64,000 nt of DNA from Bordetella parapertussis (GCA_945861275.1 CAMATZ010000002.1:10300-74299); one strand, 5' to 3'. Counted from the first letter of the stretch, positions 13,303-52,713 are shown. Numbers and translations are program-made. Notes: generated by a model from the sequence alone, not told the origin.

Positions 13303-13323
13303 CGGTCAGGTCGATGCGCCGGA

Positions 13324-14844: not shown

Positions 14845-14885
14845 GATGATGTCCCCGATGATGGCTGCCGAAACAGTCTCGGGCG

Positions 14886-28305: not shown

Positions 28306-28773
28306 ATGGCTGAACCGGTTTTTCTCACGGCTGAGGACAAGTTGCGCGGTGACGACGCCGTCGCCGCCTTGCTGGTGCTTGACGATGGCCGCTATGTGAT
28401 GCAATTGCGTGACGCGATTCCGCGGATTTTCTACCCTGGACATTGGGGTTGTTTCGGCGGCGCTGTCGAGGAGGGAGAAGAACCTGAACTCGCGCTGCGG
28501 CGGGAACTCGCCGAGGAAATAGAATTTGCAGCGGGCACAATGACAGAATTCACGCGCTTTGATTTTGACTTGCGCGGTCTGGGCCAAAAGAAAGTGTACC
28601 GGATTTTTTACGAAGTGCCGATCACGCAGGCAGCACTCGCAAAACTGGTGTTACACGAAGGCGCTGCATACCAGGTATTCAGCGGCGCGCAACTTTTGCA
28701 GGAAAGACACGTAACGCCGTACGATGCCTTCGCCATTTTGTTGCATTACCGGCGCGAGCGCTTTCAGCCTTGA
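28306..28773 (+). CDS. NUDIX hydrolase
   Basis: 155 aa. Complete Nudix box GGAVEEGEEPELALRRELAEEIEF. Last gene of the plus-strand glycan operon. Confidence 0.82.
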   Translation: MAEPVFLTAEDKLRGDDAVAALLVLDDGRYVMQLRDAIPRIFYPGHWGCFGGAVEEGEEPELALRRELAEEIEFAAGTMTEFTRFDFDLRGLGQKKVYRIFYEVPITQAALAKLVLHEGAAYQVFSGAQLLQERHVTPYDAFAILLHYRRERFQP

Positions 28774-28794: not shown

Positions 28795-29493
28795 CTACCC
28801 AAGGTGCTTGCGAAAGAACGCCACCGTCAGCGCCAGCGCCCGATCCGCATCCGCCTTGCGATAAGGCTTGCCCCCATGCCGTGCGAACGCATGATCGGCT
28901 TCGGGATATTTGTGGAGAGTCACCAGCGGATTGGGTGACAGCCGCCGCTCCAGCAATTCATTCACTTCGGCTTGCACCCAGCGATCCTTCATCGCCATGT
29001 GCAGCATGAACGGCCGATGCAGATTGCCCGCTTCGCGAATATTGTGTTCGATGTAAGTGCCGTAATAGGCCACAGCACAATCGATATCGGTACGGCAACA
29101 CAGCAGATAACACAGCTTGCCACCGAGACAATAACCGACCGCGCCCGCTTTGCCGTTGCACGCAGGCAGGCCCGCGAGATATTTCAGGGTGTCTTCCATG
29201 TCACGCACACCGAGGTCGTAGTCGAAATCGTAATAGAGATCGAACGCCTTTTTCCCGTCCTCGGGATTGCGGTCGGACAATTCCACCCCCGCCTCCTGCC
29301 GCCAGAACAGATCGGGCACCAGGCACACGAAGCCGGCTTCGGCAAACTCCTGTGCATGTTTGCGCATGGTGTCGTTGACGCCCCAGATTTCCATGATGGC
29401 GACGATGCCGCCCACCGGCGCACCATCCGGCACTGCAAGGTAGGCGCCCATCACGCCGTCGCGCAGAGGCACTTTGATGTTGGATGTTTTCAT
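28795..29493 (-). CDS. dienelactone hydrolase family protein
   Basis: 232 aa. GAVGYCLGGKL (nucleophile Cys elbow) and EADHAF (catalytic His region). Lies 10 nt downstream of cofC on the same strand. Confidence 0.82.
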   Translation of the reverse strand: MKTSNIKVPLRDGVMGAYLAVPDGAPVGGIVAIMEIWGVNDTMRKHAQEFAEAGFVCLVPDLFWRQEAGVELSDRNPEDGKKAFDLYYDFDYDLGVRDMEDTLKYLAGLPACNGKAGAVGYCLGGKLCYLLCCRTDIDCAVAYYGTYIEHNIREAGNLHRPFMLHMAMKDRWVQAEVNELLERRLSPNPLVTLHKYPEADHAFARHGGKPYRKADADRALALTVAFFRKHLG

Positions 29494-29503
29494 ATTACGT
29501 GTT

Positions 29504-30205
29504 TTATTTGGTGCGCGATGTTATTGCGCCCGTGCTGCGCGACGCAGTGCGGGGCAATGTGGCCAGAAACGCTTGCGGTGCGTCACCGCTGTTCCGCCAT
29601 TCCGCGAGATCTTCCGGCGTGTCCAGATCAAACGCCAGCGCCGCGTTGATACACGGAAAAGTACGCACACCACGCGCTTCGCCCTGCGCGATGTGCCGTG
29701 CGTAACTATCCTTGCCAAACGCGAACTTGCGCACGCTGGCATCCACCAGCAAGGCATTGGTGCCTGCGTGATGACGGTCGGGCGCGATCACTACGCCCTT
29801 ACCGAAAACCGGCAGCATCTCCATCGCCTCCAACGCCTCAGCCTCCAGCCGCGGTAAATCACACGGCAGAATCAGCAGGCGCTGCGCGCCCAGCGCAGCG
29901 GCATGAGCGGCAGCCTGCGACAATGCAGCATTCAGCCCACCGGTGGATGCGTGCTTACTTGTGTGTTCCGGCAGCGCAATCGCTCCGGCTTTACGCGCCA
30001 GCGCGAGCGTGACTTCGCATGGGCTCACCACCACACAGCGCTGCGCGTCGCCCAGCCACCCGCTCACCACGCGCAAGGTGCGTGCGAGCAACCAACGATT
30101 GAGCTTGGCGCGCGCGGCCGGTTCCAGAACGGCGGACAATCTGGACTTGCCTTCATTCACGCCGCGATGCGGCACAATAATAAGTAAGTGTTTGTATTTA
30201 AACAT
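29504..30205 (-). CDS. cofC: F420 biosynthesis guanylyltransferase (2-phospho-L-lactate / PEP / 3-PG guanylyltransferase, CofC/FbiD)
   Basis: 233 aa. IIVPHRGVNEGKSRL, LILPCDLP, DRHHAGTNALL and FGKDSYARH are CofC family motifs. 8-nt overlap with cofD. Confidence 0.85.
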   Translation of the reverse strand: MFKYKHLLIIVPHRGVNEGKSRLSAVLEPAARAKLNRWLLARTLRVVSGWLGDAQRCVVVSPCEVTLALARKAGAIALPEHTSKHASTGGLNAALSQAAAHAAALGAQRLLILPCDLPRLEAEALEAMEMLPVFGKGVVIAPDRHHAGTNALLVDASVRKFAFGKDSYARHIAQGEARGVRTFPCINAALAFDLDTPEDLAEWRNSGDAPQAFLATLPRTASRSTGAITSRTK

Positions 30206-31145
30206 TATTTATAGATCGGCCCAGCGCCAGACTGAGCACGCGGCGCGCGAGTATTGTGCTCTTGCGGCAATTGCTCATCAACGTATCGGTAACCAACACG
30301 CGCTTGCCCAGGCGTTCAATCGCGCCGGCTAACTTCACGTCTTGCTGGTCGATCACCCAGCGATCTACTGCGCTGCCATAGTGCCGCGCGACTTCCAGCG
30401 CAGTCGGCTGCATCCCCAGCTCCCGCATCATTTTCGCCGCCGGGCCTTTGACCGCCGCGCCGCCGATGATCGGTGACACCGCCACCACGGGAAACGTGCG
30501 CGCCTTCAACCACGCCTTGATGGCAGGCACGCTGAAGATCGGCGCAATGCTCACGAACGGGTTTGAGGGGCACAGCACCACGGCATCCACACGCCCTCGC
30601 AGCACACGCGCGAGCGCGTCGGGCACACGCGCATTGCGCGCGCCTGTGTAACGAAATCCGCTTACGCGCGGCTTGCACTGCTGCCGCACAAAGTAATTCT
30701 GGAAATCCATTTCGCCCGATGTTGTTTTCACACGGGTGCGCACCGCCGTCTCGCTCATCGGCAAAATCTTGTGCTGGATGCCCAGGCGCGCGGCAAGATC
30801 GCTGGTCACTGCCGAGAGTGATGCGCCCCCACGCAATGCTTCACGCCGCAGCACATGCAGCGCGAGATCGCGATCACCCAATTGAAACCAGTGTGCGCCG
30901 CCCAGACGCTTTACTTCGCTGATGAACTGCCATGTTTCGCCTGCGCGGCCCCAGCCGGTTTGCGGATTGTTGACGCCTGCCAGCGTGTACAGCACGGTGT
31001 CGAGGTCGGGACAAACGGTAAAACCCAGATGCTCGAAATCGTCGCCGGTATTCACCACAATGGCCAGTTCCTTCGGCGACAACACCGCCGCCAGCCCGAC
31101 CGCGAGCTTCGCGCCACCGACACCGCCTGCGAGCGCCACGATCAT
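30198..31145 (-). CDS. cofD: 2-phospho-L-lactate transferase (FO phosphotransferase)
   Basis: 315 aa. MIVALAGGVGGAKLAVGL...VVNTGDDFEHLGFTVCPDLDTVLYTLAG is the CofD/FbiA signature. Confidence 0.9.
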   Translation of the reverse strand: MIVALAGGVGGAKLAVGLAAVLSPKELAIVVNTGDDFEHLGFTVCPDLDTVLYTLAGVNNPQTGWGRAGETWQFISEVKRLGGAHWFQLGDRDLALHVLRREALRGGASLSAVTSDLAARLGIQHKILPMSETAVRTRVKTTSGEMDFQNYFVRQQCKPRVSGFRYTGARNARVPDALARVLRGRVDAVVLCPSNPFVSIAPIFSVPAIKAWLKARTFPVVAVSPIIGGAAVKGPAAKMMRELGMQPTALEVARHYGSAVDRWVIDQQDVKLAGAIERLGKRVLVTDTLMSNCRKSTILARRVLSLALGRSINNV

Positions 31146-31906
31146 CGAAATAAATCCTCGGCTTCGGGGCGCAGCAGTTCTTTGACGGAACTCTCACGCG
31201 GCGCGTACGGAAACCCGCGCACCAGCACGGCGGGCGTGCCCTCATCCGCCTGACCCATAACCAGCGAAGCGGCAGCAGCGAGTTCATCCGCAGCGGCCAC
31301 CTGCGTCACCTTCAGGGTGCGGCCTTCGCGGTCCTTATTCCCGCGCAAATCAATCAGCGCCGGTATGCCGGCAACGCCAATCGCGGTGCCGGTCACGCCG
31401 TTGCGCCAGGCGCGTCCGAAGCTGTCGATGATGAGCACGCCCACGTCGACTCCACTGTGGCCGCGCAATGCGTCGCGCAGCTTATGCGCGCTGCCATCGG
31501 GGTCCACCGGCAATAACAACACCGCGTCTTCAGCGCCCGGCACATTGGATTGATCGATACCCGCGTTCGCCATCACGAAGCCCAGCTTGTGTTCGACGAT
31601 AATGATGCCGGGCTTCACGCGCAGCACTTGGTGTGATTCACGCAGCATCAGTTCGACGATGCGCGGGTCTTTGTGGGCTGCCTTGGCCAGAGTCTGCGCC
31701 CGTGCAGAGGGCTGCACGCCCGCAAGTTGTACCAAACGGCCTTCGGCTTTGGAGACGATTTTTTGCGCGATTACGAGTATGTCGCCGGATTGCAGGGCCC
31801 TATGCGCACGCGCAATGGCGGTTGCAAGCAAATCGCATAGTGACGCACCTACAACCACTTCTGGTATGCCGGGCAACGCCACCAGACTCAATGCACGTTC
31901 AGTCAC
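31142..31906 (-). CDS. cofE: coenzyme F420-0:L-glutamate ligase (stand-alone CofE, no FbiB nitroreductase-like C-terminal domain)
   Basis: 254 aa. ILVIAQKIVSKAEGRLV, GFVMANAGIDQSN and DSFGRAWRNG. The length corresponds to the ligase domain only. Confidence 0.88.
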   Translation of the reverse strand: MTERALSLVALPGIPEVVVGASLCDLLATAIARAHRALQSGDILVIAQKIVSKAEGRLVQLAGVQPSARAQTLAKAAHKDPRIVELMLRESHQVLRVKPGIIIVEHKLGFVMANAGIDQSNVPGAEDAVLLLPVDPDGSAHKLRDALRGHSGVDVGVLIIDSFGRAWRNGVTGTAIGVAGIPALIDLRGNKDREGRTLKVTQVAAADELAAAASLVMGQADEGTPAVLVRGFPYAPRESSVKELLRPEAEDLFR

Positions 31907-32555
31907 GCATCACACCAGTAATCCGTATCCCCGACCCCGCAACCTTGTAGCGCTTATTGATCGCGATCAGCACCGAAGTCAGCGCCTCGGACGCCACCGA
32001 ATTCGCCAACACGCCCGCGTGCCACGCGCGCAGGCCCGCGTCATGCGCGAGGCCGATCACCACCTCACGCGCTTCGGCATCATCGCCGCACACCAGCACA
32101 TCGCAATCGACCTCGTGCGCCGCATCCTTGAGGTGGGTGGCGGAAACATTCTGGAATGCGGAGACCACTTTCACCTGCGCGCCCAGCCGCCGCTGCAACG
32201 CAAGCACCGCCGATTCGCCGTTGGGCAACTGCACTTTATCCACTCGCGGTGGTGTGAGCGGTACCGTGACATCAATCAGAATTTTGCCTGCCAGCTGACC
32301 GGCAACACTTTCGGCAGTGGCAAGTTGTGCCGCGAAGGGGACGGTGAGCACCACTATCGCTGCCTGCGCCGCTTCCGCATTACTGGCGCCACGCACCCTC
32401 GCTTTGCCGCCGAGCAATTGATTCAATTCCGCCGCGCTGGTTTGCGCTTTGCCCGCATCGCGCGAGCCTATCACCACCGCGTGCCCTGCAAGCGCCCAGC
32501 GATAGGCGAGCCCGCTGCCTTCCTTGCCGCTACCGCCGAGCACGCCGATGTTCAC
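31899..32555 (-). CDS. npdG: NADPH-dependent F420 reductase
   Basis: 218 aa with a GTG start (GTGA overlap with the fbiC stop). IGVLGGSGKEGSGLAYRWALAGHAVVIGSRD is the NpdG/Fno-type dinucleotide fold. Confidence 0.82.
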   Translation of the reverse strand: MNIGVLGGSGKEGSGLAYRWALAGHAVVIGSRDAGKAQTSAAELNQLLGGKARVRGASNAEAAQAAIVVLTVPFAAQLATAESVAGQLAGKILIDVTVPLTPPRVDKVQLPNGESAVLALQRRLGAQVKVVSAFQNVSATHLKDAAHEVDCDVLVCGDDAEAREVVIGLAHDAGLRAWHAGVLANSVASEALTSVLIAINKRYKVAGSGIRITGVMRD

Positions 32556-34870
32556 GCGGCGCTGCGCTCTTTTTGCGCTGGCATGGGCAACGCCACCAGC
32601 GGTGGCGCCGCCTGCGCTGCAGCATGCCGCTCCAGCGTCGCGTCGCCATACAGCGTGGTGCGCTGCTGCGGCACGCGCCCTGCCGCACTGATCATCGCCT
32701 CCATGCGCGCCGGCGGCATTTCCTGCCCGTGCTGCGTGCCCGCGGCGCGCGAAATGCTTTCGTTCATCAGCGTGCCGCCAAGATCATTGACGCCGGCGGC
32801 GAGGCATGCGGCCACACCGTCTGCGCCCAATTTCACCCACGATACTTGTATGTTCTGTATCACCGGATGCAGCACCAGCCGTGCCACCGCGTGCATCAAT
32901 ATCGCTTCGCGCGACGTCGGTCCCTTGCGCGCGCGGCCCTGCTGATACACCGGCGCGCCCATATGCACAAAAGGCAGCGGGATGAATTCGGTGAAGCCGC
33001 CGGTCTTCTGCTGCAAGGCGCGCACTCTCAGCAGATGCCGCGCCCAGTGGCGCGGATGATCCACGTGGCCGAACATGATGGTAGCGGTGGAACGCAAGCC
33101 CAGCCCGTGCGCGGTTTCCATCACGGTGAGCCATTCTTCGGTGTTCACTTTATCCGGGCAGATCATGCGCCGCACTTCATCATCGAGAATTTCCGCGGCG
33201 GTACCGGGCAGGCTGTTCAGGCCCGCGTCGATCAACCGCAACAGAAATTCACGCACCGGCAAACCCAGTGTTTGCGCACCGTGGGTGACTTCCAGCGGCG
33301 TAAACGCATGCACGTGAATGCCGGGCGCCGCGCGTTTGACCGCGCGCAAAATGTCGAGATAGGTGTCGCCGGTGTACGAGGGATGAATGCCGCCCTGCAT
33401 GCACACTTCGGTGGCGCCGCGCGACCACGCTTCGGCCACACGCCGCTCGATTTCTTCGAGCGGCAGATCATAGGCCGCGCCACGCAGCGACGCACTGTGG
33501 CGGCCCTTGGAAAACGCGCAGAAGGTGCAACGATAAGTGCAGATGTTGGTGTAGTTGATATTGCGGTTCACCACATAGCGCACGGTGTCGCCTACGGTAT
33601 TGCGTCGCAGTGCGTCTGCCGCGGCGCAGATGTCGTGAAACGCGTCGCCGCGTGCGGTGAATAGCCGCGCGATGCCTGGTTCGGTTGATGTATCGTAAGT
33701 ATTTGTTTTTATTGATAATTTTTTGGATCGTGATAACACGTTCAACGGCAGCGCCAACCCCGGCGACCAGCCATCGGCGCGCGCATAACCATCAGTGTCA
33801 CTCGCACGGATTATGGCGGTGGCGATTTTCGGATGATGCCAGGCGTGCGCCTCGTGCACGTACGAGGGGTAGCTCGGCAGCCGCGCAACCAGTTCCTTGC
33901 CTTGCGCGGCAGTAATGCGGCGCAGTTCTTCAATGGCGGGCCACGGCGCTTCGGGATTCACATGATCAGGCGTCACCGGCGACACACCGCCCCAATCGTT
34001 GATGCCGGCGGCTATCAATTCCCCGCTATTCCCGGCACTCAGATTCGGTGGCGCCTGCAGGTTCATCTGCGCGCCCAGAATCATTCGCGCCACGGCGATG
34101 GTCCACAGCAATTCTTCGTGCGGCGCGTGCGGTGCAGTTGCCATGCGCGTAGCGGGCTTGGCGCGAAAATTCTGGATGATCACTTCCTGAATGTGGCCGT
34201 AGCGCTGGTGCAGATCGCGGATCGCAACCAGCGCGTCGATACGCTCCGCGCGTGTTTCACCGATGCCGATGAGTATGCCGGTGGTGAACGGTATCTTAAG
34301 CTCCCCCGCGAGCCGCAGTGTTTCAAGCCGCGCTGCCGGATGCTTGTCAGGCGAGCCAAAATGCGGTCCGCCTTTTTCGCACAGGCGCTCGGAGGTGCTT
34401 TCCAGCATCAAACCCTGCGACGCACTCACCTCGCGTAACCTCGCCATCTCATCGCGCGTCATCACTCCCGGATTCACGTGCGGCAACAGCGTAGTCTCGC
34501 GCAACACCAGCGCACACATCGCATGCAGGTAATCGATGGTGCTGGCGTAGCCCAGCGTCGCGAGTTCTTCGCGCGCGGCCTTGTAGCGCAACTCCGGTTT
34601 GTCGCCGAGTGTAAACAAGGCCTCGGTGCAATCTGCCGCCTGCCCTGCTTTGGCAATAGCCAGTACTTCATCGGGCGTGAGATAACCACGCACGCCCAGC
34701 TGTGGCGCGTGCGCAAAGGTGCAGTAGCTGCACACATCGCGGCACAGCCGCGTCAACGGAATGAATACCTTGCGCGAGTATGAGATGAGCGGGCCGTGGC
34801 CTGCGTCGCGCAGGCGCGCGGCTTCAGGCATCAGGCCGACTACGGGACTTGCTGTCAGGTGCTCAAACAT
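32552..34870 (-). CDS. fbiC: FO synthase, fused CofG/CofH (7,8-didemethyl-8-hydroxy-5-deazariboflavin synthase)
   Basis: 772 aa with two radical-SAM CxxxCxxC sites (CRDVCSYCTF and CTYRCTFCAF), one in each half. Confidence 0.93.
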   Translation of the reverse strand: MFEHLTASPVVGLMPEAARLRDAGHGPLISYSRKVFIPLTRLCRDVCSYCTFAHAPQLGVRGYLTPDEVLAIAKAGQAADCTEALFTLGDKPELRYKAAREELATLGYASTIDYLHAMCALVLRETTLLPHVNPGVMTRDEMARLREVSASQGLMLESTSERLCEKGGPHFGSPDKHPAARLETLRLAGELKIPFTTGILIGIGETRAERIDALVAIRDLHQRYGHIQEVIIQNFRAKPATRMATAPHAPHEELLWTIAVARMILGAQMNLQAPPNLSAGNSGELIAAGINDWGGVSPVTPDHVNPEAPWPAIEELRRITAAQGKELVARLPSYPSYVHEAHAWHHPKIATAIIRASDTDGYARADGWSPGLALPLNVLSRSKKLSIKTNTYDTSTEPGIARLFTARGDAFHDICAAADALRRNTVGDTVRYVVNRNINYTNICTYRCTFCAFSKGRHSASLRGAAYDLPLEEIERRVAEAWSRGATEVCMQGGIHPSYTGDTYLDILRAVKRAAPGIHVHAFTPLEVTHGAQTLGLPVREFLLRLIDAGLNSLPGTAAEILDDEVRRMICPDKVNTEEWLTVMETAHGLGLRSTATIMFGHVDHPRHWARHLLRVRALQQKTGGFTEFIPLPFVHMGAPVYQQGRARKGPTSREAILMHAVARLVLHPVIQNIQVSWVKLGADGVAACLAAGVNDLGGTLMNESISRAAGTQHGQEMPPARMEAMISAAGRVPQQRTTLYGDATLERHAAAQAAPPLVALPMPAQKERSAA

Positions 34871-34908
34871 TAACGGCCTGGATTTTTATTTTCCGTGGTT
34901 AATCAATT

Positions 34909-35877
34909 TTAGTTAATCCGCACACCCGTCACTTTCACCACTTCTGCCCAGGTCTTCACATCCTGCTCCATCACGCGCTGCATTACGTCCGGGCTTTGCT
35001 TCATCGCTTCAGCCGCATTGGCCAGGAAAATCTCTTTGGCCTTCGGTGCATCCACCGCTTTGGCGAATTCGGCGTTCAGCTTCTCGATGATAGCGCGCGG
35101 CACGTTGGCCGGGGCCAGCACGGCCGCGATCACGGCCGCATCCACGCCCTTGACAGTTTCGCCCAGCGCGGGGATTTCCGGCAAGGCTGCGGCGCGTTTG
35201 TCCGAGGTGAGACCGACCGCTACCAGCTTTTTCGAGCGCACGTGTTCCAGCGCCGCCGGTATGGTGGTGACGATCAATGCAATCTCGCCGGTGAGCAACG
35301 ACACGGTGGATGTTGTACCGCCCTTGTAGTTGACGGCAATCAGGTCGATACCGGCCCGCGTGCGGAATTTCTCCGCTGCCAGATGCGTGACAGTGCCCGC
35401 GCCGGCATTGCCGCAGGTGATGCCGGGGCTTTTTTTCGCCAGCGCGATCAGCTCTTTTGCGTTTTTCACACCCACCGAGGGATGCGCCACCATGATCAGC
35501 GGTGACGCCGACACCGGCGCTACGGCAACCAGATCGCGCGCATGGTTAAAGCCGAGCTTGTGGTAAAGCGAGGGCATGATGGCGTGTGTGGAGAGGTCGG
35601 TAAACAGCAGGGTATAACCATCCGCTGCAGATTTGGCAACAAAGTCCGCAGCGAGCGTGGTACCGGCGCCAGCGCGATTTTCAACGATGACCTGGTGACC
35701 GAGGCTGCGCGTCATTTCCGCTGCGGTTACGCGCGCGAAGGTGTCGGTGGCGCCGCCGGGTGCGAAGGCTACGATCAGGCGCACGGGTTTGGTGGGAAAG
35801 GTTTGAGCCGTTGCCTGCCCCAAGGCAGCAATCAGCGCAGCACTCATAGCGGTAGTTAAGTAATTGTTTTTAATCAT
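34909..35877 (-). CDS. Bug family tripartite tricarboxylate transporter substrate-binding protein (TctC-like)
   Basis: From ATG 35877: signal peptide MIKNNYLTTAMSAALIAALGQATAQ, then TFPTKPVRLIVAFAPGGATD. ATGA overlap with the LLM gene stop. Confidence 0.85.
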   Translation of the reverse strand: MIKNNYLTTAMSAALIAALGQATAQTFPTKPVRLIVAFAPGGATDTFARVTAAEMTRSLGHQVIVENRAGAGTTLAADFVAKSAADGYTLLFTDLSTHAIMPSLYHKLGFNHARDLVAVAPVSASPLIMVAHPSVGVKNAKELIALAKKSPGITCGNAGAGTVTHLAAEKFRTRAGIDLIAVNYKGGTTSTVSLLTGEIALIVTTIPAALEHVRSKKLVAVGLTSDKRAAALPEIPALGETVKGVDAAVIAAVLAPANVPRAIIEKLNAEFAKAVDAPKAKEIFLANAAEAMKQSPDVMQRVMEQDVKTWAEVVKVTGVRIN

Positions 35878-36827
35878 TTTTTCTTCAAGGCGGGTAACAC
35901 ATCCACAATGAACTGCGCCAGCTGCGCCACCTGATCCTCGCCCACCAGCCGTATGCACAGGTCGGTAACACCTGCTGCCTCGTAGCGCTTAAGCACATCA
36001 ATCACCACCGACGCGGGTCCCAAGCCCATCATGCCACGGAAATTCACGCCGCCGCCGTAGTATTTTTCGAGGAACTCGTGCGTCAGCGACTCGGCCTTGG
36101 CCGCATCGTCTTCAAGCCGGATGGTAGTGTAAACGCACAGGGGAAAATCAGGGCGCGGGCGCGCGTGCTTCGCCATCGCCTCCGCGCACACCTCGCGCAG
36201 TTTACGGATATCGTCTTCAGTCACGTACGTGGTAATCACGCCGTCACCGAATTTGCCCACACGCTCGATCTGCGCCGGAATGAATTCGCCGCGATTGCCT
36301 GCGGTGACCAGCAGCGGCGGGCCTTCTTCGTTCCACGGCAGCGGGCCGATGGTGTGTTCGGTGAGCTTGAAGCCGCTGCCTGCATACGTCACCGGCCTGC
36401 CGCTCCACAGCATGCGCCACACTTTCATGTGTTCTTCGAGGTCTTTGGCGCGGCGCTTGTGTACTTGCCCGCACGCCTCCCACTCGCGCGCAATCGCGGG
36501 CAGACCCCAACCCACGCCGAGACCCAGCACCAGCCGCCCCTGCGAAATCTGATCGATGTTGGCGAGCTGATGCGCCAGTACCGTGGGCTGGCGCAATGCC
36601 GGCAACAAAACCGCAGTTCCCAATCTGGCGCGCCGGGTCATCGCCGCTACATACGCGAGCGTGGTCAGCGGTTCCAGACGCGGCTTGGCCACTACGCTGT
36701 CACCCACCCACACGTCCATGTCCGCCTCATCGCACAAGCGCGCGATGGTCCAGCAGTCTTCCACCGGCGGACGCCGCGCCGACTGAATAATCACACCCCG
36801 GTGGGGCAGCAACACGCCCAAACGCAT
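35874..36827 (-). CDS. LLM-class (luciferase-like) oxidoreductase, probably F420-dependent
   Basis: 317 aa. LGVLLP...GDSVVAKPRLEPLTTLAYVAAMTRRARLGTAVLL...GRLVLGLGVGW resembles the F420-dependent LLM subfamily. Adjacent to the F420 operon. Confidence 0.78.
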   Translation of the reverse strand: MRLGVLLPHRGVIIQSARRPPVEDCWTIARLCDEADMDVWVGDSVVAKPRLEPLTTLAYVAAMTRRARLGTAVLLPALRQPTVLAHQLANIDQISQGRLVLGLGVGWGLPAIAREWEACGQVHKRRAKDLEEHMKVWRMLWSGRPVTYAGSGFKLTEHTIGPLPWNEEGPPLLVTAGNRGEFIPAQIERVGKFGDGVITTYVTEDDIRKLREVCAEAMAKHARPRPDFPLCVYTTIRLEDDAAKAESLTHEFLEKYYGGGVNFRGMMGLGPASVVIDVLKRYEAAGVTDLCIRLVGEDQVAQLAQFIVDVLPALKKK

Positions 36828-36951: not shown

Positions 36952-37926
36952 ATGAAATATTGCGCTATTGCCAGCACGCTGATGTTGGGCACGGCACTGG
37001 TTGCAAACGGTGTTGCGCACGCACAGACTTACCCCGCCAAGCCGGTACGCGTCATCGTGCCTTTTGCGCCGGGCGGCGGCACCGACATTCTCGCGCGTGT
37101 CATGTCACAAAAGTTGTCCGAACAGATCGGGCAGCAGTTTTTCGTCGAGAACCGTCCCGGCGCAGCCGGTAATGTGGGGCTGGAACTGACGGTGAAATCG
37201 GTGCCCGATGGCTACACGCTGCTGGTCGGTTCGACGTCGGAAATCGGCATCGGCCCCAGCCTCTATTCACGGCCGGCGTTCGATGTGCAACGCGATCTGG
37301 CCGTCGCAGCACCCCTTGCTTCAACGCCCATGGTGCTGGTGGTGCATCCGTCATTACCGGTAAAAACCGCAAAGGAACTTGCCGATCTCGCGCGCGCACG
37401 TCCCGGTCAAATCAATTACGCATCGGCCGGCACCGGCACCGGCAATCACATGTCCGCTGAAATGTTTTTGCATGTCACCAAAACCAGGATGGTGCACATC
37501 TCCTACAAGGGCGCCGGCCCGGCATTGACCGACGTAGTGGGTGGACAGGTGCATGTCATGTTCTCGACCTTGCCGGCAGCCACCGCGCTGATCAAGGCGG
37601 GCCGCCTGAAAGCACTGGCGGTTTCGTCGCCACAGCGTGCGCCCACCATGCCGGGTATTCCAACCATGCTCGAATCGGGGTTGCCCAATTATGAAGTCGA
37701 ATACTGGTACGGTTTCTTCGCGCCCGCGGCAACGCCGAGGGAGGTGCTCGCGCGCATCCATACCGAGTCGCAACAAGTGCTGCGCAACGCAGATACCATC
37801 GCCCGGCTGGCGGAACAGGGCTTGCAGGTTATCGCCAGGACACCAGAGCAATTTACGGCATTCGTGAAAGCGGATATGGAAAAATGGGCGGCTGTGGTGA
37901 AAGCGTCGGGAGCGAAGCTGGAGTGA
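36952..37926 (+). CDS. Bug family TTT substrate-binding protein (TctC-like)
   Basis: From ATG 36952: signal peptide, then AQTYPAKPVRVIVPFAPGGGTD. Confidence 0.85.
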   Translation: MKYCAIASTLMLGTALVANGVAHAQTYPAKPVRVIVPFAPGGGTDILARVMSQKLSEQIGQQFFVENRPGAAGNVGLELTVKSVPDGYTLLVGSTSEIGIGPSLYSRPAFDVQRDLAVAAPLASTPMVLVVHPSLPVKTAKELADLARARPGQINYASAGTGTGNHMSAEMFLHVTKTRMVHISYKGAGPALTDVVGGQVHVMFSTLPAATALIKAGRLKALAVSSPQRAPTMPGIPTMLESGLPNYEVEYWYGFFAPAATPREVLARIHTESQQVLRNADTIARLAEQGLQVIARTPEQFTAFVKADMEKWAAVVKASGAKLE

Positions 37927-39603: not shown

Positions 39604-40827
39604 CTACACCACCCCGCCGCTACGCAACGCCGCAATCTCCGCCTCACTCTTCTTCAGCACCCCGCGCAGAATCTCATCGGTATGCTGCCCCACCGCGGGC
39701 GGCGGGATTTCGTGCTTGATCGGGGTTTCGGAAAAGCGCATGGGGCTGGCCACCAGCGTTACTTTACCTGCCACCGCGTGCGGCAGTTCGATTTTCAGCC
39801 CGCGCGCGATTACCTGCGGTTCCTTGAACACTTCGGCGATGGTGTTGATGGGGCCGTTGGCGACACCGGCATCGTCCAATAACTTGACCCACGCCTGCGT
39901 GGAACGCTTTTCAAAAATCTCGTTCAGCACGCGCGTCACTTCGACGCGGTTCTTCACGCGATCACCGTTGGTGGCGAAGTGCGGGTCTTTGAGCAGGTGC
40001 GCGCAGCCTGCCGCCTCGCAGAATTTGTTGAACAGGTTGTCGTTGCCGCAGGCGAGTATCACCGCACCATCCGCAGTTTTGAAGGTTTGATAGGGCACGA
40101 TGTTCGGATGCGCGTTGCCGATGCGCGAGGGTGATACGCCGGTGGCGAAATAATTCATCGCCTGATTAGCGAGGAAGGCGACGCAGGTGTCGAGCAGCGC
40201 CACGTCGATCCACTGTCCTTTGCCGCTGACCGCGCGATGGGTCAGCGCGGCGCATATCGCGATGGTGGCGTACATGCCCGTGGTCATATCGATGATGGGG
40301 ATGCCCACGCGCTGCGCTCCGGCGCCGGGCAGGCCGTCGGCTTCGCCGGTGATGCTCATCAATCCGCCCATGCCCTGCGCCATAAAGTCGTAACCGGGAC
40401 GCTCTTTGTAGGGGCCGGTCTGGCCGAAACCGGTGACTGAACAATAGATGAGACCCGGATTGAGTTTTTTCAGGTCTTCATACCCCAGCCCGTAGCGCGC
40501 GAGATCGCCGAACTTGTAATTTTCAACCAGCACATCGCATTGCGTGGCCAGTTCGCGCACCAGTTGCTGGCCTTCGGTCTTGCTGAGATCGACGGTGATC
40601 GACTTTTTGCCGCGATTGGCGGCGCAAAAATACGCAGATTCTTTGGTCTCGTTACCCTGCTCGTCCTTCAGAAACGGCGGCGCATAAGCGCGTGAATCGT
40701 CGCCCTTGCCGGGACGCTCAACCTTGATCACTTCCGCACCCAGATCGGCGAGGTTCTGCGCCGTCCACGGCCCGGCGAGCACGCGCGAGAGGTCGAGTAC
40801 TTTGATGTGCGATAACGGTCCTGACAT
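39604..40827 (-). CDS. CaiB/BaiF family (class III) CoA-transferase
   Basis: 407 aa. IKVLDLSRVLAGPWTAQNLADLGAEVIKVERPGKGDDSR is the family N-terminal signature. Confidence 0.9.
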   Translation of the reverse strand: MSGPLSHIKVLDLSRVLAGPWTAQNLADLGAEVIKVERPGKGDDSRAYAPPFLKDEQGNETKESAYFCAANRGKKSITVDLSKTEGQQLVRELATQCDVLVENYKFGDLARYGLGYEDLKKLNPGLIYCSVTGFGQTGPYKERPGYDFMAQGMGGLMSITGEADGLPGAGAQRVGIPIIDMTTGMYATIAICAALTHRAVSGKGQWIDVALLDTCVAFLANQAMNYFATGVSPSRIGNAHPNIVPYQTFKTADGAVILACGNDNLFNKFCEAAGCAHLLKDPHFATNGDRVKNRVEVTRVLNEIFEKRSTQAWVKLLDDAGVANGPINTIAEVFKEPQVIARGLKIELPHAVAGKVTLVASPMRFSETPIKHEIPPPAVGQHTDEILRGVLKKSEAEIAALRSGGVV

Positions 40828-43634: not shown

Positions 43635-43832
43635 GACTCGCTTTCGCTAAAATTCCCTGAAGGAACAAACAGATTGCGCGTCGCATTATAACTGCGGCGG
43701 TGCGCAGGATTTGATGCCGCCCCGCCCTGGGTGAGAACGATACGTGTTGACACACCCACGAGGGGCTATAACAATGCCGTTTCCGATAAGAGACCCGCTT
43801 ACGGGTTTGCGTCCTTCACCGAGGAGATTTAC

Positions 43833-44813
43833 ATGCCACGATTACTCCCTGCCGCTGCACTGGTTTGCCTTGCGTTTTCCGCCCACGCGCAGGACCCTTC
43901 GACAGGCTCAGGACAGGCTTATCCGTCCAAGGCCATCAACATTACCGTGCCTAATCCACCCGGCGGCATGAATCAGGTTCACGCGCAACCGCTGTCGACA
44001 ATTCTTGAAAAAATTACAGGCCAGGCCGCGCCGGTGGTCAATCGCCCGGGCGGCACCGCGGCCGCGGGTACTGCCTACGTGGTAAATCAACCGCCTGACG
44101 GACACAGTTGGCTGGTGACCACGGCCAACCTGCATCTCGCGCTGGAGAAAGACATACTGTATGGCGTCAAATCGCCTTACGCGCTGAATCAGATTGGATT
44201 TATCGCGCTGATGAGTGCCGACCCATTGGTGATGGGCGTGCATCCGGTGTTGCCGGTAAAGACCGTCAAGGAGCTGATCGCGCTCACAAAATCAAAACCG
44301 AATGAGCTGGTGTTTTCGACCTCTGGCCCGTACGGCATCACGCACACGCCGATGGTGTTGTTCCTCGACGCCACCAAAACCACCATGCGTCATCTGCCCA
44401 CCACCGGCGGCGGCCCGGCGATCACCCAGGCACTGGGCGGACACTCGCAAGTTACCGCCGGCGCACCGGCGACCATGTTGCCCCACAGCAACTCGGGCAA
44501 GCTGCGTCTGCTGGCCAGTTGGGGCGACAAAGTACATCCGGCGATCCCCACGGTGCCTACATTTAAATCGTTGGGCATCAATATCGAGGCTTATCTGTGG
44601 GTGGGCCTGTTCACCTCGGCGGCGGTGCCGGAAGTGACAATGACCAAAGTACGCGATCTGGCGCGCAGAGCCACCAGCGATCCGCTGTTCAAGAAGTCGC
44701 TGGAAAACCTGCAGGTGGTGCTCGATTACCGCGATGCGCCGGAATTTCGCAAGTTTTTTGACGCCGACCACCAACGCATGGCGCGCGCCGTGAAAAGCAT
44801 CGGCAAGATTTAA
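43833..44813 (+). CDS. Bug family TTT substrate-binding protein (TctC-like)
   Basis: From ATG 43833: signal peptide MPRLLPAAALVCLAFSAHAQ. The mature part is Bug-like but divergent (AINITVPNPPGG). Confidence 0.8.
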   Translation: MPRLLPAAALVCLAFSAHAQDPSTGSGQAYPSKAINITVPNPPGGMNQVHAQPLSTILEKITGQAAPVVNRPGGTAAAGTAYVVNQPPDGHSWLVTTANLHLALEKDILYGVKSPYALNQIGFIALMSADPLVMGVHPVLPVKTVKELIALTKSKPNELVFSTSGPYGITHTPMVLFLDATKTTMRHLPTTGGGPAITQALGGHSQVTAGAPATMLPHSNSGKLRLLASWGDKVHPAIPTVPTFKSLGINIEAYLWVGLFTSAAVPEVTMTKVRDLARRATSDPLFKKSLENLQVVLDYRDAPEFRKFFDADHQRMARAVKSIGKI

Positions 44814-44839: not shown

Positions 44840-46882
44840 TCAAACCTCAACTTTAAGACAAGCCGCGAAATGCCCGGCGCGCACCTCGCGTAACGGCGGG
44901 CGTTCAGCCCTGCACGCTGCATCCGCGCGCGGGCAGCGTGTGTGAAACACGCAGCCCGATGGTGGTGTCAGCGGACTGGGCACTTCACCGCCCAGCACAC
45001 GATGCGCGCGCTGCGCTTCGATCAGCGGATCAGGCACCGGCACCGCTTCGAGCAACGCCTGCGTGTAGGGGTGCAGCGGCTCTGCATACAAGGTGTCGCG
45101 ATCGGCGATCTCCATCACCCGGCCGAGGTACATGACGATCACGCGATCCGATATGTGGCGCACCACCGCAAGATCGTGCGCGATGAACAGATAGGTGAGC
45201 CCCAGTTTTTTCTGCAGTTCTTCCAGCAGATTGATGATCTGCGCCTGTATCGACACATCGAGCGCCGACACCGGCTCGTCGCACACGATAAATTCCGGTT
45301 CCATCGCCAGCGCGCGCGCTATGCCCACGCGCTGGCGCTGGCCGCCCGACAACTCATGCGGGTAACGGCCTGCCATGTAGTCAAACAGGCCCACCTGCCG
45401 CAACAGCCCGCTGACTTTGGCGCGCGCCGCGGCCTTGTCCGGCTGCAATTTATATACCAGCAGCGGCTCGGCGATGCTGTCGCCGATAGTCATGCGTGGA
45501 TTGAGTGAACTGAACGGGTCCTGAAAAATTACCTGTATCTTGCGGCGATAGGTTTTTAGCGCGTCGCCGCGCGCATGTGTGACGTCGGCGTTGTCAAAAG
45601 AGATGCTTCCGGCGGTGGAATTCTCCAGCCGTAACAACGTGCGCCCGACAGTGGTTTTGCCGCAGCCGGATTCGCCCACCAGGCCGACGGTCTCGCCCTT
45701 GAATACATCGAATGACAGATCATCTACCGCGCGCACTTCAGCCTTGTTGGCGGCGAAAGTTTTTAACCCGGTGGAAACATCGAAGTAGGTTTTGAGCCCG
45801 CGCACACTGAGCAAAGGCCGCTCGCGATTTACCGGCTTCACCACCGCTGCGCTGTGCGCGGCGGCTTGTAACCCCAGCGCGGCCGGGCCTTTATGTTCCA
45901 TTTCCTGCGCGCGCAGGCACGCGCTGTAACGACCGGCAGTCACCTCAAGCATGGCAGGCAGGCTCAGCTCACACGCCGGCTGGCGCCCCGCACAGCGCGG
46001 CGCAAAGCGGCAACCCGGCGGCGGCGCGAGCAGATCGGGCGGCGCGCCATCGATGGTTTCGAGCCGCAGGCCGCGCGGCTGGTCGAGCCGCGGCACCGAG
46101 CGCAGCAGGCCAGCGGTATACGGGTGCAGCGGCTTGGCAAATACCGCTTCCGCCGCACCCTGCTCGGCCAGGCGCGCCGCGTACATTACATTCACGCGGT
46201 CGGCGTAGCGCGCGACGATGCCCAGGTTGTGCGTGATCACCACCAGCGCGATGTTGAGATCACGCGCGAGGTCCTGCATCAGCTTGAGTATCTGCGCCTG
46301 GATCGTGACATCGAGCGCGGTGGTCGGCTCGTCCGCAATAATGAGCTTGGGGTTGCAGGCCAGCGCGATGGCAATCACCACGCGCTGGCGCATGCCGCCG
46401 GAGAATTGGTGCGGATATTGATCGAGCCTGCGCTCGGCGTCGGGAATGCCCACCATTTCCAGCAGCTCCAGCGCCCGCGTGCGTGCCGCCTCCGGCGTCA
46501 TATGCAAATGCAGAAACAGCGGCTCCATGATCTGAAACCCGACGGTGAGCACCGGATTCAGCGAAGTCATCGGATCCTGAAAAATCATCGCGATGTCGCG
46601 TCCGCGGATCGCACGCATTGCGTCATCGGCCAGCGTGAGCAGATCGCGGCCTTCGAACAGTATATGTCCTTGCGTCACGCGCCCTGATTGCGCCAGCAGC
46701 CGCATGATCGCCAGCGACGACACCGACTTTCCGCAGCCGGATTCACCCACCAGCGCGACGATTTCACCCGCCTTGACCGTATAGGAAATGCCTTCCACCG
46801 CACGCACCACGCCGCGCGGGGTGTGAAATTGCACATGCAGGTTGTCGACTTCGAGCAGGCAGGGCTGCCCTTCAACTGTCAC
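44840..46882 (-). CDS. ABC transporter ATP-binding protein with duplicated ATPase domains (DppD/DppF-type fusion, GsiA/YejF-like)
   Basis: Two Walker A sites ([22 protein letters not shown]), two signatures ([16 protein letters not shown]), and two oligopeptide-type C-terminal tails (HPYTAGLL.., HPYTQALL..) with Cys clusters. Start set at GTG 46882, which overlaps the upstream TGA. Confidence 0.85.
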
Positions 46883-49800
46883 GCCAGCGCGTCCGCCAGC
46901 ACGCGTGCCACATGCACCGCCTCGCGTTGCGCGCCGTCGTGTATCTGGTGGCGGCAACTTGTGCCATCGGCGACGATCAAGGTATCTTTGCCGGCCTCGC
47001 GAACTTTCGGCAGCAATGCGGCTTCGGCCATTTGCATCGATACCTCGTAATGCTCAGCGTCGTAGCCGAAACTGCCGGCCATGCCGCAGCAACTGGATTC
47101 GATCAATTCGGTTTGCAGCTCGGGTATCAGATTCAGCACGCGCAGCACCGCGGGCATCGCGGCGAACGCTTTTTGATGGCAGTGGCCGTGCAGCAGCGCT
47201 TTTTTCTGCGGCAACGCTTTTAAATTCAGCTTGAAGCGCCCGGCGTCGAGCTCGCGCGCGATGAACTCCTCGAACAGGTAGGCGTTCAACGCCAGTTCCG
47301 CCGACTGGGGATTCGGCAGCATCGACAGGAATTCGTCACGCATGCCGAGCAAACACGAGGGTTCCAATCCGACGATGGCAATGCCGCGTTCGATGTAGGG
47401 CAGCAGCGCGGCTATGGTGCGCTCGGCTTCCGCGCGCGCTTTGTCAACCATGCCGGTGGCAAGGTACGTGCGGCCGCAGCACAGCGGGCGCGATTCGCCT
47501 GGTGCGCGCGGCAGGTGTACGGTGTAGCCGGCGGCTTGCAGCACTTTTAATGCTGCTTGCGCATTCTCGGGTTCGAAGTAGTTGTTGAAGGTATCGATGA
47601 AGAGGACGACTTCGCGCTTTACAGTACTTTCCCCAGTAGCATCGCTGGCGTTACCACTCAAAGAAACCCCCTCGCCCGCCTTGGGGCGGGACAAGGGAAC
47701 ACTTGAAGCGGAGCAGAGGGTGGGGGAGAGGGTAGGGGAAGCAAGCCCCTCACCCCCACCCTCTCCCCGCAAGCGGGGCGAGGGGGTTTCTTTGGATGCT
47801 GCCATAGAGGAGAGAACGCCAATTGCGTCACCTTTCCACTTCGGCAACGACCGCTGCGCGGCAAATCCCACAAAGCCCTTCGCCACCGCCTGCGCCATAT
47901 TCACCAGCGGCCCCAGTTTCGATAGCCACGGCGCGTAATGCGGCAGGCCGGCAATCAGCTTGTCCTTCAAGCTATATCCATGCCGCCGTTTGTAATGATA
48001 AAGAAATTCGATCTTCATCTTCGCCATGTCCACGCCGGTGGGACATTCGCGCTTGCAGCCTTTGCAGGACACGCACAGATCCATCGCCTTGTGCATTTCG
48101 TCCGAGGTAAACGCGTCGGGGCCTAACTGCCCGGACAGCGCCAGCCGCAGCGTGTTGGCGCGGCCGCGCGTGAGATGCTGTTCGTCGCGTGTGACGCGAA
48201 ACGACGGGCACATGGTGCCGGCGTCGAACTTGCGGCAGTGGCCGTTGTTGTTGCACATCTCGACGGCTTTATCCAGACCGCCCCACTCTTTCCAGTCGAG
48301 CGCGGTGCTGATCGGGATGGTCTTGTAACCGGGCTTGAAGCGGAACAGCGAGCGGTCGTCCTGCTTCGACGGGCGCACGATCTTGCCGGGATTGAGCAGA
48401 CCTTTGGGATCGAAAATATCCTTGATTTCGCCAAACGCCTGGGTGAGATTGGGCCCGAAGAAGGGTGCTATCCACTCGCTGCGCACCAGGCCGTCGCCGT
48501 GTTCGCCCGAGTACGAGCCTTTGTATTGCTTGACCATTTCCGCGGCTTCTTCGGCGATGGCGCGCATTTTTATTGCACCGTCTTCACGCATATTGAGTAT
48601 GGGACGCACATGCAGCGTGCCTACCGATGCATGCGCGTACCAGGTGCCGGTGGTGCCGTGTTTCTCGAATACGCGCGTCAAGCGCTCGGTATACTCGGCG
48701 AGATGTTCCAGCGGCACCGCGCAGTCTTCGATGAACGACACCGGTTTGCCGTCGCCCTTCATCGACATCATGATGTTCAGCCCCGCCTTGCGCACCTCCC
48801 ACACGTCGCGCTGCAGCGCGGCGTCGGTGATCTCGATCACGCCGCCGGGGAATCCCAGGTCGCCCATCAGTTCGACCAATTGTTTTAACTTGTGGTGTTG
48901 CTCGTCCTTGTCGTCACCCGCGAATTCCACCAGCAAAATCGCGTCCGGGTCGCCCTGAATAAATTTCTCGACGATGGGCCGGAACGTGGCATTCGCACGC
49001 GCCAGCCCGATCATGGTGCGATCCACCAGCTCGACTGCGGTGGGCTTGAGCTTGACGATATGCAACGGCGCTTGCATCGATTTAAAAAACGTCGGGAAGT
49101 GACACACGCCGAGTGTCTTGTGCTTGGGCAGCGTTGACAGGTTGAGATGTATGCGTTTCGAGTACGCCAGCGTGCCTTCCGAGCCCACCAGCAGATGCGC
49201 CATGTTAAATGCGTAGCCCGACACCATGTCAAGGTTGTAACCGCCGACGCGCCGCAGCAGCTTCGGATAGCGGTGCTCAATTTCCTCGGCGTTGACTACC
49301 GCAATATCGCGGATTTTCCTCACCAGATCGCGGTAGCCCTGTGGCCCATCGAGTTGCGACAGATCCGAAGGCACACCGCCGAAGTGATATTCATTGCCGT
49401 CGGCGAGTACCGCATCCACACCGCGCACGTTGTGCACCATGTTGCCGTAGAAAATCGAGCGCGAGCCGCAGGAGTTGTTGCCGGTCATGCCGCCGATGGT
49501 TGCCTGCGCGCTGGTCGATACGTCCACCGGATACCACAGGCCGTGCGGTTTCAAAAATGCGTTGAGTTGGTCGAGCACCACGCCCGGTTGCACCACGGCC
49601 GTGCGCGCCTCAGCATTGAAATCGACGACGTTGCGCAAATACTTGCTGACATCAATGATCAGCGCCGCGCCCACCGTCTGCCCGCACTGCGAAGTACCGC
49701 CGCCACGTGGCAATACCGCCACGCCGGCGTCGAGCGCGATCTGCATGGCGACAATGGCGTCTTCCTCGGTCTGCGGAATGACCACACCGACCGGTTCGAT

Positions 49801-49905: not shown

Positions 49906-49908
49906 AAA

Positions 49909-50004
49909 GGCGTGAACGAGTGAACGGGTTAACGAGTGAACGTGTGGGCGCCGTGGCAGGGGCACTTACTCGTTCACCCCTTCACCCGTTCACCCGTTCA
50001 CGCC
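49909..50004. repeat. imperfect 34-bp inverted repeat built from tandem GTGAACG(R) octamers, in a divergent promoter region
   Basis: Left arm 49909-49942 is GGCGTGAACGAGTGAACGGGTTAACGAGTGAACG. The right arm 49971-50004 is its reverse complement with 4 mismatches. The spacer is 28 bp. TATAAT at 50007-50012 follows immediately, 27 nt before ATG 50039. Confidence 0.8.
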
Positions 50005-50038
50005 CTTATAATACCGCACCATTTTCCGGAGCACCGCC

Positions 50039-51223: not shown

Positions 51224-51224
51224 C

Positions 51225-52196: not shown

Positions 52197-52202
52197 TGGC
52201 CG

Positions 52203-52640
52203 TCAGCGGATATTCGCCTGAGCCGTAGTCCCCAGCGGCACCGCATCGGGCACATGTTCCTTCTCAAAATTAAATTCGAGTTTGGTGCCGACCGGGTCGT
52301 ATAAAAACACCTGGTAGCCCGCGTCCTTGATGTTTTGCTCCTCGAACTCGATATCGAGCTTTTTCAAACGCTTGCGGAAATCCACCGCCCCGCTCGCCTT
52401 CCACGCGATGTGATCGAGGCTACCGGAGTGATAGTCCTTCACCTGCGCGCCCTTTTTGAAGCGCGCACCGACGTGCAGGATGGGATCGTCGCCGTTATAA
52501 AGCCAAACGCCGGGGGCATTGAAATTGGGACGCGGCCCGGCCTTGAGGTCCAGCACGTCGCCGTAGAATTTTTCGATGGCCGGAAGGTCGTCCTCCGAGC
52601 AGCGGATGTTGAAATGCAAAAAACCCTGGAAGAATTTCAT
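52203..52640 (-). CDS. VOC (glyoxalase/bleomycin-resistance/dioxygenase) family protein
   Basis: 145 aa. LHFNIRCS...FYGDVLDL...LDHIAW...FLYDPVGTKLEF is the VOC beta-alpha-beta-beta-beta pattern with metal-ligand His/Glu positions. Confidence 0.7.
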   Translation of the reverse strand: MKFFQGFLHFNIRCSEDDLPAIEKFYGDVLDLKAGPRPNFNAPGVWLYNGDDPILHVGARFKKGAQVKDYHSGSLDHIAWKASGAVDFRKRLKKLDIEFEEQNIKDAGYQVFLYDPVGTKLEFNFEKEHVPDAVPLGTTAQANIR

Positions 52641-52713
52641 GATGTCTCCTTGAATAGAATCGATGGCGATATCTTACCCGCCATCGTGAAAACGGTCTAA
52701 TGCCATTGCGTAG

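Follow-up and report, generated by a model that had tools for sequence, protein, structure and literature searches.

Which enzyme draws on the deazaflavin cofactor F420 in a betaproteobacterium that carries the genes to make and recharge it? This question is raised by a DNA stretch of 64,000 nt deposited under the name Bordetella parapertussis (GCA_945861275.1 CAMATZ010000002.1:10300-74299; the whole of this stretch is called the window below), in which an eight-gene array on the minus strand fills positions 28795-36827. Open reading frame (ORF) calling combined with Pfam and NCBIfam searches gave, in order of transcription, a luciferase-like monooxygenase (LLM) family oxidoreductase, a TctC/Bug-family binding protein, fbiC, npdG, cofE, cofD, cofC and a dienelactone hydrolase (DLH). 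We consider it likely that the array is an operon for making and recharging F420 whose leading LLM consumes the reduced cofactor F420H2, with the binding protein and the DLH acting in a linked pathway. According to a 2021 review, experimental work on a betaproteobacterial F420-dependent enzyme is lacking altogether, and what F420 does in Gram-negative bacteria is not known (PMC8498797). Together with approximately 30 relatives at species level, the locus points to one particular protein as a candidate for such an enzyme, potentially the first in Betaproteobacteria.

Gene content and junctions of the array

All eight ORFs are intact, tightly packed and on one strand, and their products were identified with Pfam and NCBIfam, the NCBIfam scores being judged against the curated cut-offs. 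The first gene (35874..36827; all coordinates of the array are on the minus strand) encodes the LLM oxidoreductase (317 aa; PF00296, 142 bits), and is followed by the gene for the TctC/Bug-family periplasmic solute-binding protein (34909..35877, 322 aa; PF03401, 198 bits), hereafter Bug. Behind these come FbiC, an FO synthase with fused CofG and CofH (32552..34870, 772 aa; NF006687, 1140.7 bits against a cut-off of 1018), the NADPH-dependent F420 reductase NpdG/Fno (31899..32555, 218 aa; TIGR01915, 195.4 bits against 149.8), the stand-alone F420-0:gamma-glutamyl ligase CofE (31142..31906, 254 aa; TIGR01916, 292 bits against 180.65), the 2-phospho-L-lactate transferase CofD (30198..31145, 315 aa; TIGR01819, 290.5 bits against 257.45) and the guanylyltransferase CofC, predicted to be of the 2-phospholactate (2-PL) or phosphoenolpyruvate (PEP) type (29504..30205, 233 aa; TIGR03552, 132.2 bits against 105). 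A ClcD-type DLH closes the array (28795..29493, 232 aa; PF01738, 148.7 bits). FbiC contains two radical-SAM CxxxCxxC motifs (CRDVCSYC, residue 43; CTYRCTFC, residue 444), and the TIGR01915 match spans the full length of NpdG. The curated equivalog cut-offs were exceeded by all five F420 proteins, and, judged by these scores, five consecutive pathway-specific equivalog matches cannot arise by chance.

The junctions in transcription order are -4, +38, -4, -8, -4, -8 and +10 nt, with overlaps of 4, 8, 4 and 8 nt from fbiC through cofC, a spacing of 38 nt between Bug and fbiC and one of 10 nt between cofC and DLH. A preliminary description of the window had given the same gene order, strand and coordinates, overlaps of 4-8 nt from fbiC through cofC, and an NADPH:F420 reductase embedded among the biosynthesis genes, and in each of these points it agrees exactly with the gene calls, the measured junctions and the family matches. 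The start of Bug is the ATG at 35877, which lies in a 4 nt ATGA overlap with the stop codon of the LLM gene and is also the start in the gene call of the ENA metagenome contig that matches the window; the longest possible Bug ORF, which has an upstream GTG and extends to 35958, was rejected as the gene. The coupling of the LLM and Bug genes is as tight as that among the cof genes. From this layout the eight genes are probably co-transcribed as one unit; a pattern scan for terminators and σ70 promoters gave no site above shuffled expectation within the array, a result that is neutral on a single transcript, and searches of the window against Rfam and for tRNA genes returned nothing.

On the DLH side, the array is met by a convergent NUDIX hydrolase gene (28306-28773, plus strand) with 21 nt between the two stop codons, and this gene is kept only in the two closest relatives (loci L005 and L006). 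No regulator is located directly upstream of the array in the window. A GntR-family regulator is found directly upstream of the F420 operon at two other loci, namely L002 of a related MAG (metagenome-assembled genome; 9278-9940, GntR/FCD-type, on the same strand as the LLM) and L073 of Aromatoleum EbN1 (6710-7378, divergent).

In the mechanism that we favour, FbiC would make the deazaflavin FO, CofC and CofD would attach the linker as the phosphate of a C3 acid, CofE would add the glutamate tail, and NpdG/Fno would keep the cofactor in the form of F420H2 at the expense of NADPH. The embedded Fno implies a demand for F420H2; the 2021 review, in which Heiss et al. 2002 serves as a source on Fno alone, describes Fno as the only known F420 reducer in Betaproteobacteria (PMC8498797). 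The LLM would be the resident F420H2 consumer of the operon, most likely as a reductase that transfers hydride to a carboxylic acid. This acid, or a precursor of it, would probably be handed by Bug to a TTT transporter whose genes lie elsewhere. The DLH, a family III CoA-transferase encoded upstream (39604..40827, minus strand, 407 aa; PF02515, succinate-glutarate CoA-transferase-like) and an enoyl-CoA hydratase whose gene is also just upstream of the array could supply neighbouring steps, with opening of a lactone or ester followed by reduction, and activation with CoA. A carboxylic acid as substrate is suggested indirectly by the resemblances of Bug, the presence of the CoA-transferase and enoyl-CoA hydratase genes upstream, the CoA-transferases beside fbiC in Sphingobium and beside LLM homologues in pSymA and two haloarchaea, and the ClcD type of the DLH. 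Bug carries an N-terminal signal peptide with a hydrophobic leader ending in ATA-QT, and its relatives in the PDB are Bug27, a terephthalate-binding protein and BugD, at 145-158 bits, which do not indicate a specificity. Binding proteins of the Bug/TTT family such as Bug27 and BugD bind carboxylates. The candidate LLM stands at the head of the F420 genes, usually with a coupled solute-binding protein, which could serve to fish for its substrate. At 8 kb, the array is compact enough to be cloned whole for heterologous expression.

Conservation of the LLM-first arrangement

Related loci were collected by scanning one genome per GTDB species with an alignment of the LLM, which yielded 66 loci onto which the proteins of the window were then mapped; because the loci were picked on LLM similarity alone, the association of the LLM with F420 genes among them is not circular. 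The closest relatives of the LLM come from MAGs labelled Betaproteobacteria, Burkholderiales or Nitrosomonadales, in agreement with the proteobacterial context given in the preliminary description, and the host of the window is an uncultured betaproteobacterium. Some of the MAG records have implausible names (Bordetella parapertussis, Klebsiella pneumoniae, Chitinophaga pinensis and uncultured Streptomyces; loci L005, L006, L013, L015, L020, L027, L029, L038, L051, L026, L031, L044 and L045), and by their gene content these misnamed MAGs belong with the others in one uncultured group of Betaproteobacteria.

Of the betaproteobacterial loci, 38 extend for at least 4 kb downstream of the LLM, and in 32 of these the LLM is followed by F420 genes on the same strand. 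The full fbiC-npdG-cofE-cofD-cofC set was present in 20 of the 28 loci with at least 9.5 kb of downstream sequence, and 16 of these 28 have the DLH as well. An orthologous Bug gene directly follows the LLM in 32/45 loci, with 50-95% identity of the protein, and Bug identity tracks LLM identity across the loci; by these identities LLM and Bug are an orthologous pair. The earlier claim that both the LLM and the binding protein are tied to the F420 genes is thus sustained. Averaged over 15 complete loci, DLH (88% mean identity) and LLM (83%) are the most conserved proteins and CofC (62%) is the least. Between Bug and fbiC, two relatives have an ORF of 141-142 aa with no Pfam match (L010, 12065-12493; L017, 7351-7776), which is absent from the window.

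The arrangement is also found in altered forms. Where fbiC and npdG are lacking (L023, L024, L032, L037, L046 and L055), the LLM gene adjoins cofE-cofD with only Bug in between or, in L032, L037, L046 and L055, directly. Of the 32 loci in which F420 genes follow the LLM, 7 have no Bug after it, Bug is lacking in L002, L022 and L035, the LLM-Bug pair is found without F420 genes in L004 and L036, and in L048 the order is CoA-transferase, LLM, TctC (Bug2) and DLH, with no F420 genes between. Locus L044 contains a more divergent F420 cluster (7100-15845) with the order cofE-cofD-cofC-fbiC and without npdG, which is convergent to LLM-Bug and is preceded by two other LLM paralogues, and this suggests an independent recruitment of F420 genes beside LLM-Bug. 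The association of the LLM with F420 genes survives rearrangement, be it the gain or loss of Bug, that of fbiC and npdG, or the convergent cluster of L044.

The family assignment of the LLM points to the same cofactor. Its best NCBIfam match is TIGR03619 (F420_Rv2161c; 149.4 bits, E-value 1.2e-43), 12 of its top 13 matches are F420-class LLM families, and the best family of the class dependent on flavin mononucleotide (FMN) reaches 54.5 bits, which leaves the F420 class with a lead of approximately 95 bits. TIGR03619 was the best family for all 19 sequences searched (the window LLM and 18 orthologues; best E-value 4.2e-45), with F420-class families in the top ranks throughout, and on these scores we treat the LLM as belonging to a sister group of TIGR03619 and not as a member. 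In the alignment with Fgd1, the β3 bulge reads GTAVLLP in the LLM and GTSVLTP in Fgd1; this bulge occurs in FMN-dependent LLMs too. Outside the clade, full-length LLM homologues were detected in Rokubacteria/Methylomirabilota, Nitrososphaerales, haloarchaea, Streptomyces, one Acidoferrum MAG, Pseudonocardia plasmids and one sphingomonad (Tardibacter) plasmid, and nearly all of these lineages are known or predicted F420 makers, the exceptions being the Tardibacter plasmid and the Acidoferrum MAG (PMC8498797). Use of F420 is favoured because of the ranking of the hidden Markov models (HMMs), the genomic association and the taxonomic range of the homologues, and the LLM is a probable F420H2-dependent enzyme. 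The haloarchaeal homologues adjoin CoA-transferase, enoyl-CoA hydratase and MR/MLE genes (the CoA-transferase in two haloarchaea). A distant recurrence of the LLM-DLH pairing was considered for Streptomyces and rejected, as the α/β hydrolase beside that LLM homologue is unrelated to the DLH of the window.

At the far end of the array, the DLH matches 1DIN with 142.5 bits, and its Cys122, Asp170 and His201 align with C123, D171 and H202, which we take to be the catalytic triad of ClcD in that structure; by this alignment it is a true ClcD-type enzyme with a Cys-Asp-His triad. The CoA-transferase upstream scores 478.6 bits with NF052585, under the cut-off of 750, has an orthologue upstream of the LLM on the same strand in 23/39 loci, and is 45% identical to the CoA-transferase beside fbiC in Sphingobium. 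It is possibly part of the same pathway as the array.

Alternative readings and the lactyl linker

Several observations weigh against an F420 operon with an LLM as its user and with Bug and DLH in a linked pathway. The LLM, at 149.4 bits, falls short of the curated TIGR03619 cut-off of 166.9, and a Foldseek comparison of its AlphaFold (AF2) model (pLDDT 78) with the PDB placed the FMN-dependent MsuD, SfnG and SsuD level with the F420-dependent Mer, Fgd1 and Adf. The preliminary suggestion that the LLM probably uses F420H2 is supported by HMM ranking and genomic context, and is not helped by the family cut-off or the fold. F420 genes are lacking within 10 kb of the rokubacterial orthologues of the LLM (65-68% identity), and no promoter-like signals above shuffled expectation were seen in the pattern scan of the array. 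No TctA or TctB was seen among the genes called in the annotated parts of the window, and at least seven TctC/Bug genes are present in approximately 42 kb (window 22.5-64 kb), with those at 36952-37926, 43832-44812, 51225-52196, 52714-53691, ~54.8-55.9 kb and 58293-59276 adding to the one at 34909-35877. In most related MAGs, cofC and DLH are separated by a second and paralogous TctC gene that the window does not have, and the DLH may be a mere conserved neighbour. Finally, neither a source of 2-PL nor a reductase for dehydro-F420 (DF420) was found in the operon or the annotated parts of the window.

Some of these points concern Bug and DLH, and the alternative that survives best, which we regard as a serious though less likely possibility, holds that both are passengers and that the functional unit consists of the LLM and the five F420 genes only. 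Because TctC genes are so dense, LLM-Bug adjacency alone is weak evidence, and a high density of TctC genes fits Burkholderiales. Bug is an orphan Bug-type binding protein, so that the import step proposed in the preliminary description is overstated, and Bug is not kept in every locus in which F420 genes follow the LLM. The distance between DLH and cofC varies between loci, with the second TctC gene intervening in most relatives, and the DLH gene is on the opposite strand in L043. This second TctC (18124-19092 in L010; also in L008, L013-L015, L017, L018, L030, L040, L042, L047, L055 and L061) is approximately 40% identical to the Bug proteins of the window and is missing in the window as well as in L005, L006 and L034; it is the occupant of the ~1.1-kb gap between cofC and DLH in the relatives, for which an unknown biosynthetic gene had been considered and was rejected. 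Against passengers speak the ATGA overlap of LLM and Bug and the orthologous Bug that follows the LLM in 32/45 loci, the retention of DLH at the 3′ end in 16 of the 28 long loci and its rank as the most conserved gene, and locus L048, which holds LLM, TctC and DLH together in the absence of F420 genes. We retain Bug as a probable and DLH as a plausible participant in the favoured mechanism.

The cofactor of the LLM could also be a different one. If the LLM were an FMN-dependent two-component monooxygenase, or were otherwise independent of F420, its adjacency to F420 genes would be synteny inherited within one clade, and every locus with the arrangement does come from one related group of MAGs. 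The score under the TIGR03619 cut-off, the MsuD, SfnG and SsuD structures among the top Foldseek matches, and RslO1 (7BIP) and 3RAO among the top PDB sequence matches are in line with this possibility. The fold comparison was dropped as a means to tell the two classes apart, since both match the LLM model alike (TM 0.72-0.80, with indistinguishable E-values). Other evidence argues against an FMN enzyme: F420-class HMMs are ahead of FMN-class HMMs by approximately 95 bits, the array contains no flavin reductase partner, the association with F420 genes survives rearrangements that include the convergent, xenologous cluster of L044, and distant homologues are found almost only in F420-producing taxa. 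We consider an F420-independent LLM unlikely, and an F420H2-dependent LLM remains the reading that we prefer.

The remaining alternatives concern the synthesis of F420 itself, and more specifically its linker. CofE has no nitroreductase domain, with the FbiB-type model NF009810 aligned only at profile positions 9-243 of 449. At the diagnostic position of CofC, equivalent to S162 of the Mycetohabitans rhizoxinica protein (Mrhiz-CofC), the residue is Gly, in the motif FGKDS, and the M91/L92 and H145 sites are occupied by Leu and Ala, respectively. Gly is found at the diagnostic position in all 27 aligned CofC proteins (that of the window and 26 from related loci), Leu at the M91 position in 26 of these 27, window included, and His at the H145 position in none. 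A Ser or Thr at the S162 position is the criterion for CofC of the type using 3-phosphoglycerate (3-PG; Hasan et al., PMC8764529), and because the diagnostic residue is Gly and not the Ser of the 3PG type, this CofC clade is predicted to use 2-PL or PEP. The use of PEP would in turn call for a reductase. No nitroreductase-family gene (as in the FbiB C-terminal domain or FbiE) was present in the operon, among the called genes (approximately window 1-46900 and 46000-62500) or among the extra ORFs of the 66 related loci. We know of no F420 producer in which the source of 2-PL has been established. With a stand-alone CofE, a CofC of the PEP/2-PL type, and neither a nitroreductase nor a 2-PL source, the step that gives the saturated lactyl linker is unaccounted for. 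The preliminary description had called the operon complete, and this is true only in the sense applied to other Gram-negative F420 clusters: the four canonical enzymes and Fno are encoded, and a reductase for the lactyl linker and a 2-PL source were not found. The biosynthetic question is sharpened by the window's relatives, since the whole clade has a CofC of the PEP/2-PL type without a known route to the saturated linker.

Two side observations touch on this chemistry. Among CofC proteins of the 2-PL/PEP type, those nearest to the 3PG lineage might belong to this Gly-type clade; the 3PG lineage has been described as isolated (Hasan et al., PMC8764529). The window also encodes a fusion protein of ~1008-1028 aa (46879-49965, minus strand) with FAD_binding_4, FAD-oxidase_C and 4Fe-4S/CCG domains, which resembles glycolate oxidase or D-lactate dehydrogenase; a link of this protein to lactate chemistry is only a thought.

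The missing step could be filled by the LLM itself, as a biosynthetic reductase that brings either the enolpyruvyl group of dehydro-F420-0 to the lactyl form or PEP to 2-phospholactate, and so replaces the nitroreductase of FbiB/FbiE, which is absent from Gram-negative clusters. This fits the PEP/2-PL type of CofC in the window and in 26/26 aligned related loci, the stand-alone CofE, the absence of a nitroreductase gene from the operon, the extra ORFs of the related loci and the annotated parts of the window, and a 2-PL source that is unknown in all producers. The LLM furthermore stays beside cofE-cofD even where fbiC and npdG are lacking, which echoes the fusion of CofE and reductase in FbiB, and Mycetohabitans, which avoids the reduction by way of 3-PG, has no known F420-dependent enzymes. 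If it were true, the long-sought missing F420 step of Gram-negative producers would be filled. However, the LLM and Bug form a conserved, translationally coupled pair that also occurs away from F420 genes (L004 and L036), no LLM accompanies the identical core of Aromatoleum EbN1, and in Paraburkholderia sp. PGU19 the TIGR03619-family LLM is 5 kb away in another gene group. An F420H2-dependent step in the synthesis of F420 would also need a primer of cofactor, and there is no biochemical precedent; we rate a biosynthetic role of the LLM as quite unlikely, and prefer its role as a consumer of F420H2.

Highly unlikely is production of 3PG-F420 as in M. rhizoxinica, which we rejected on the diagnostic residues of CofC (Gly in place of Ser/Thr in the window and 26/26 related loci, never His at the H145 position, and Leu at the M91 position in 26/27 aligned proteins; criteria of PMC8764529) despite the fact that this route needs no reductase, which would fit the missing step, and that the closest solved structure to CofC is 7P97, the Mycetohabitans 3-PG guanylyltransferase (64.6 bits, compared with 44.7 bits for FbiD of Mycobacterium tuberculosis and 19.7 bits for CofC of M. 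mazei).

The remainder of the window is of a different nature. Positions 1-28270 hold a large glycan biosynthesis cluster (O-antigen or capsule-like), in places with a lower GC content (0.51-0.58), which encodes methyltransferases (TylF/CmcI types among them), glycosyltransferases, an MBOAT acyltransferase, a Wzx-like flippase, a dTDP-sugar isomerase, epimerases, an HldE-like kinase/CTP-transferase, a split transketolase and a transaldolase-like protein. A protein of 1048 aa with PLD-like nuclease and SNF2/ResIII helicase domains is encoded at 59400-62546 (plus strand). Between ~44.8 and 55.5 kb two ENA contigs of the same sample overlap, k141_579868 (window 1-55485 if collinear) and k141_994490 (from ~46015), and this region may be repeated or differently assembled in the ENA assembly.

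Comparison with known F420 systems

Homologues of FbiC turned up in 71 plasmid records, of which many are proteobacterial, and the FbiC of the window is approximately 58-63% identical to the listed proteobacterial plasmid copies; the view that proteobacterial clusters are sparse, as expressed in the preliminary description, is therefore dated. On plasmid 2 of Aromatoleum aromaticum EbN1, the same order fbiC-npdG-cofE-cofD-cofC is annotated; the genes ahead of it encode the GntR regulator and a putative F420 user of the PNPOx family, the one after cofC encodes an enoyl-CoA hydratase, and unlike in the window no LLM goes with this core. Plasmid pSymA of Sinorhizobium meliloti carries npdG, cofD, cofC and fbiC, then two CoA-transferase subunits (A/B), and then an LLM named as TIGR03619-family by NCBI, which is 34% identical to the LLM of the window over 172 residues. 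The order is npdG-cofE-cofD-cofC-fbiC on a plasmid of Paraburkholderia sp. PGU19, where the LLM stands apart as described above, fbiC-npdG is linked to a different LLM in P. sprentiae, and a CoA-transferase flanks fbiC in Sphingobium. Like the window, the Aromatoleum, pSymA and PGU19 clusters lack a DF420 reductase of the nitroreductase type.

The 3PG-F420 cluster of Mycetohabitans (Paraburkholderia) rhizoxinica resembles the array in being betaproteobacterial, in its stand-alone CofE and in the absence of a DF420 reductase. Its CofC has Ser162 and prefers 3-PG, whereas the CofC of the window has Gly, and Mycetohabitans lacks Fno and a known F420-dependent enzyme, whereas the array has Fno and the LLM. 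With the actinobacterial pathway (FbiC, FbiD, FbiA and FbiB) the array shares the four enzyme families, the fused FbiC and the PEP/2-PL-type pocket of CofC/FbiD; mycobacteria reduce dehydro-F420-0 by the C-terminal nitroreductase domain of FbiB, a domain that is absent in the window. Mycobacterial F420 genes are dispersed and do not form one operon. The npd genes for picrate degradation in Rhodococcus combine the Fno NpdG and the LLM-type F420H2 hydride transferases NpdC and NpdI in one catabolic group. Set beside the array from descriptions alone, the npd system differs in its actinobacterial host, in having its F420 genes elsewhere, in its nitroaromatic substrates, and in the lack of a binding protein and of biosynthesis genes within the group.

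A combination of F420 core, Fno and putative user oxidoreductase is recurrent and already annotated in cultured Proteobacteria, and the locus described here is a well-supported further example of this arrangement and not a new kind of cluster. Distinctive of the present locus are the lineage of its LLM, the coupling of this LLM to Bug proteins, and the terminal ClcD-type hydrolase.

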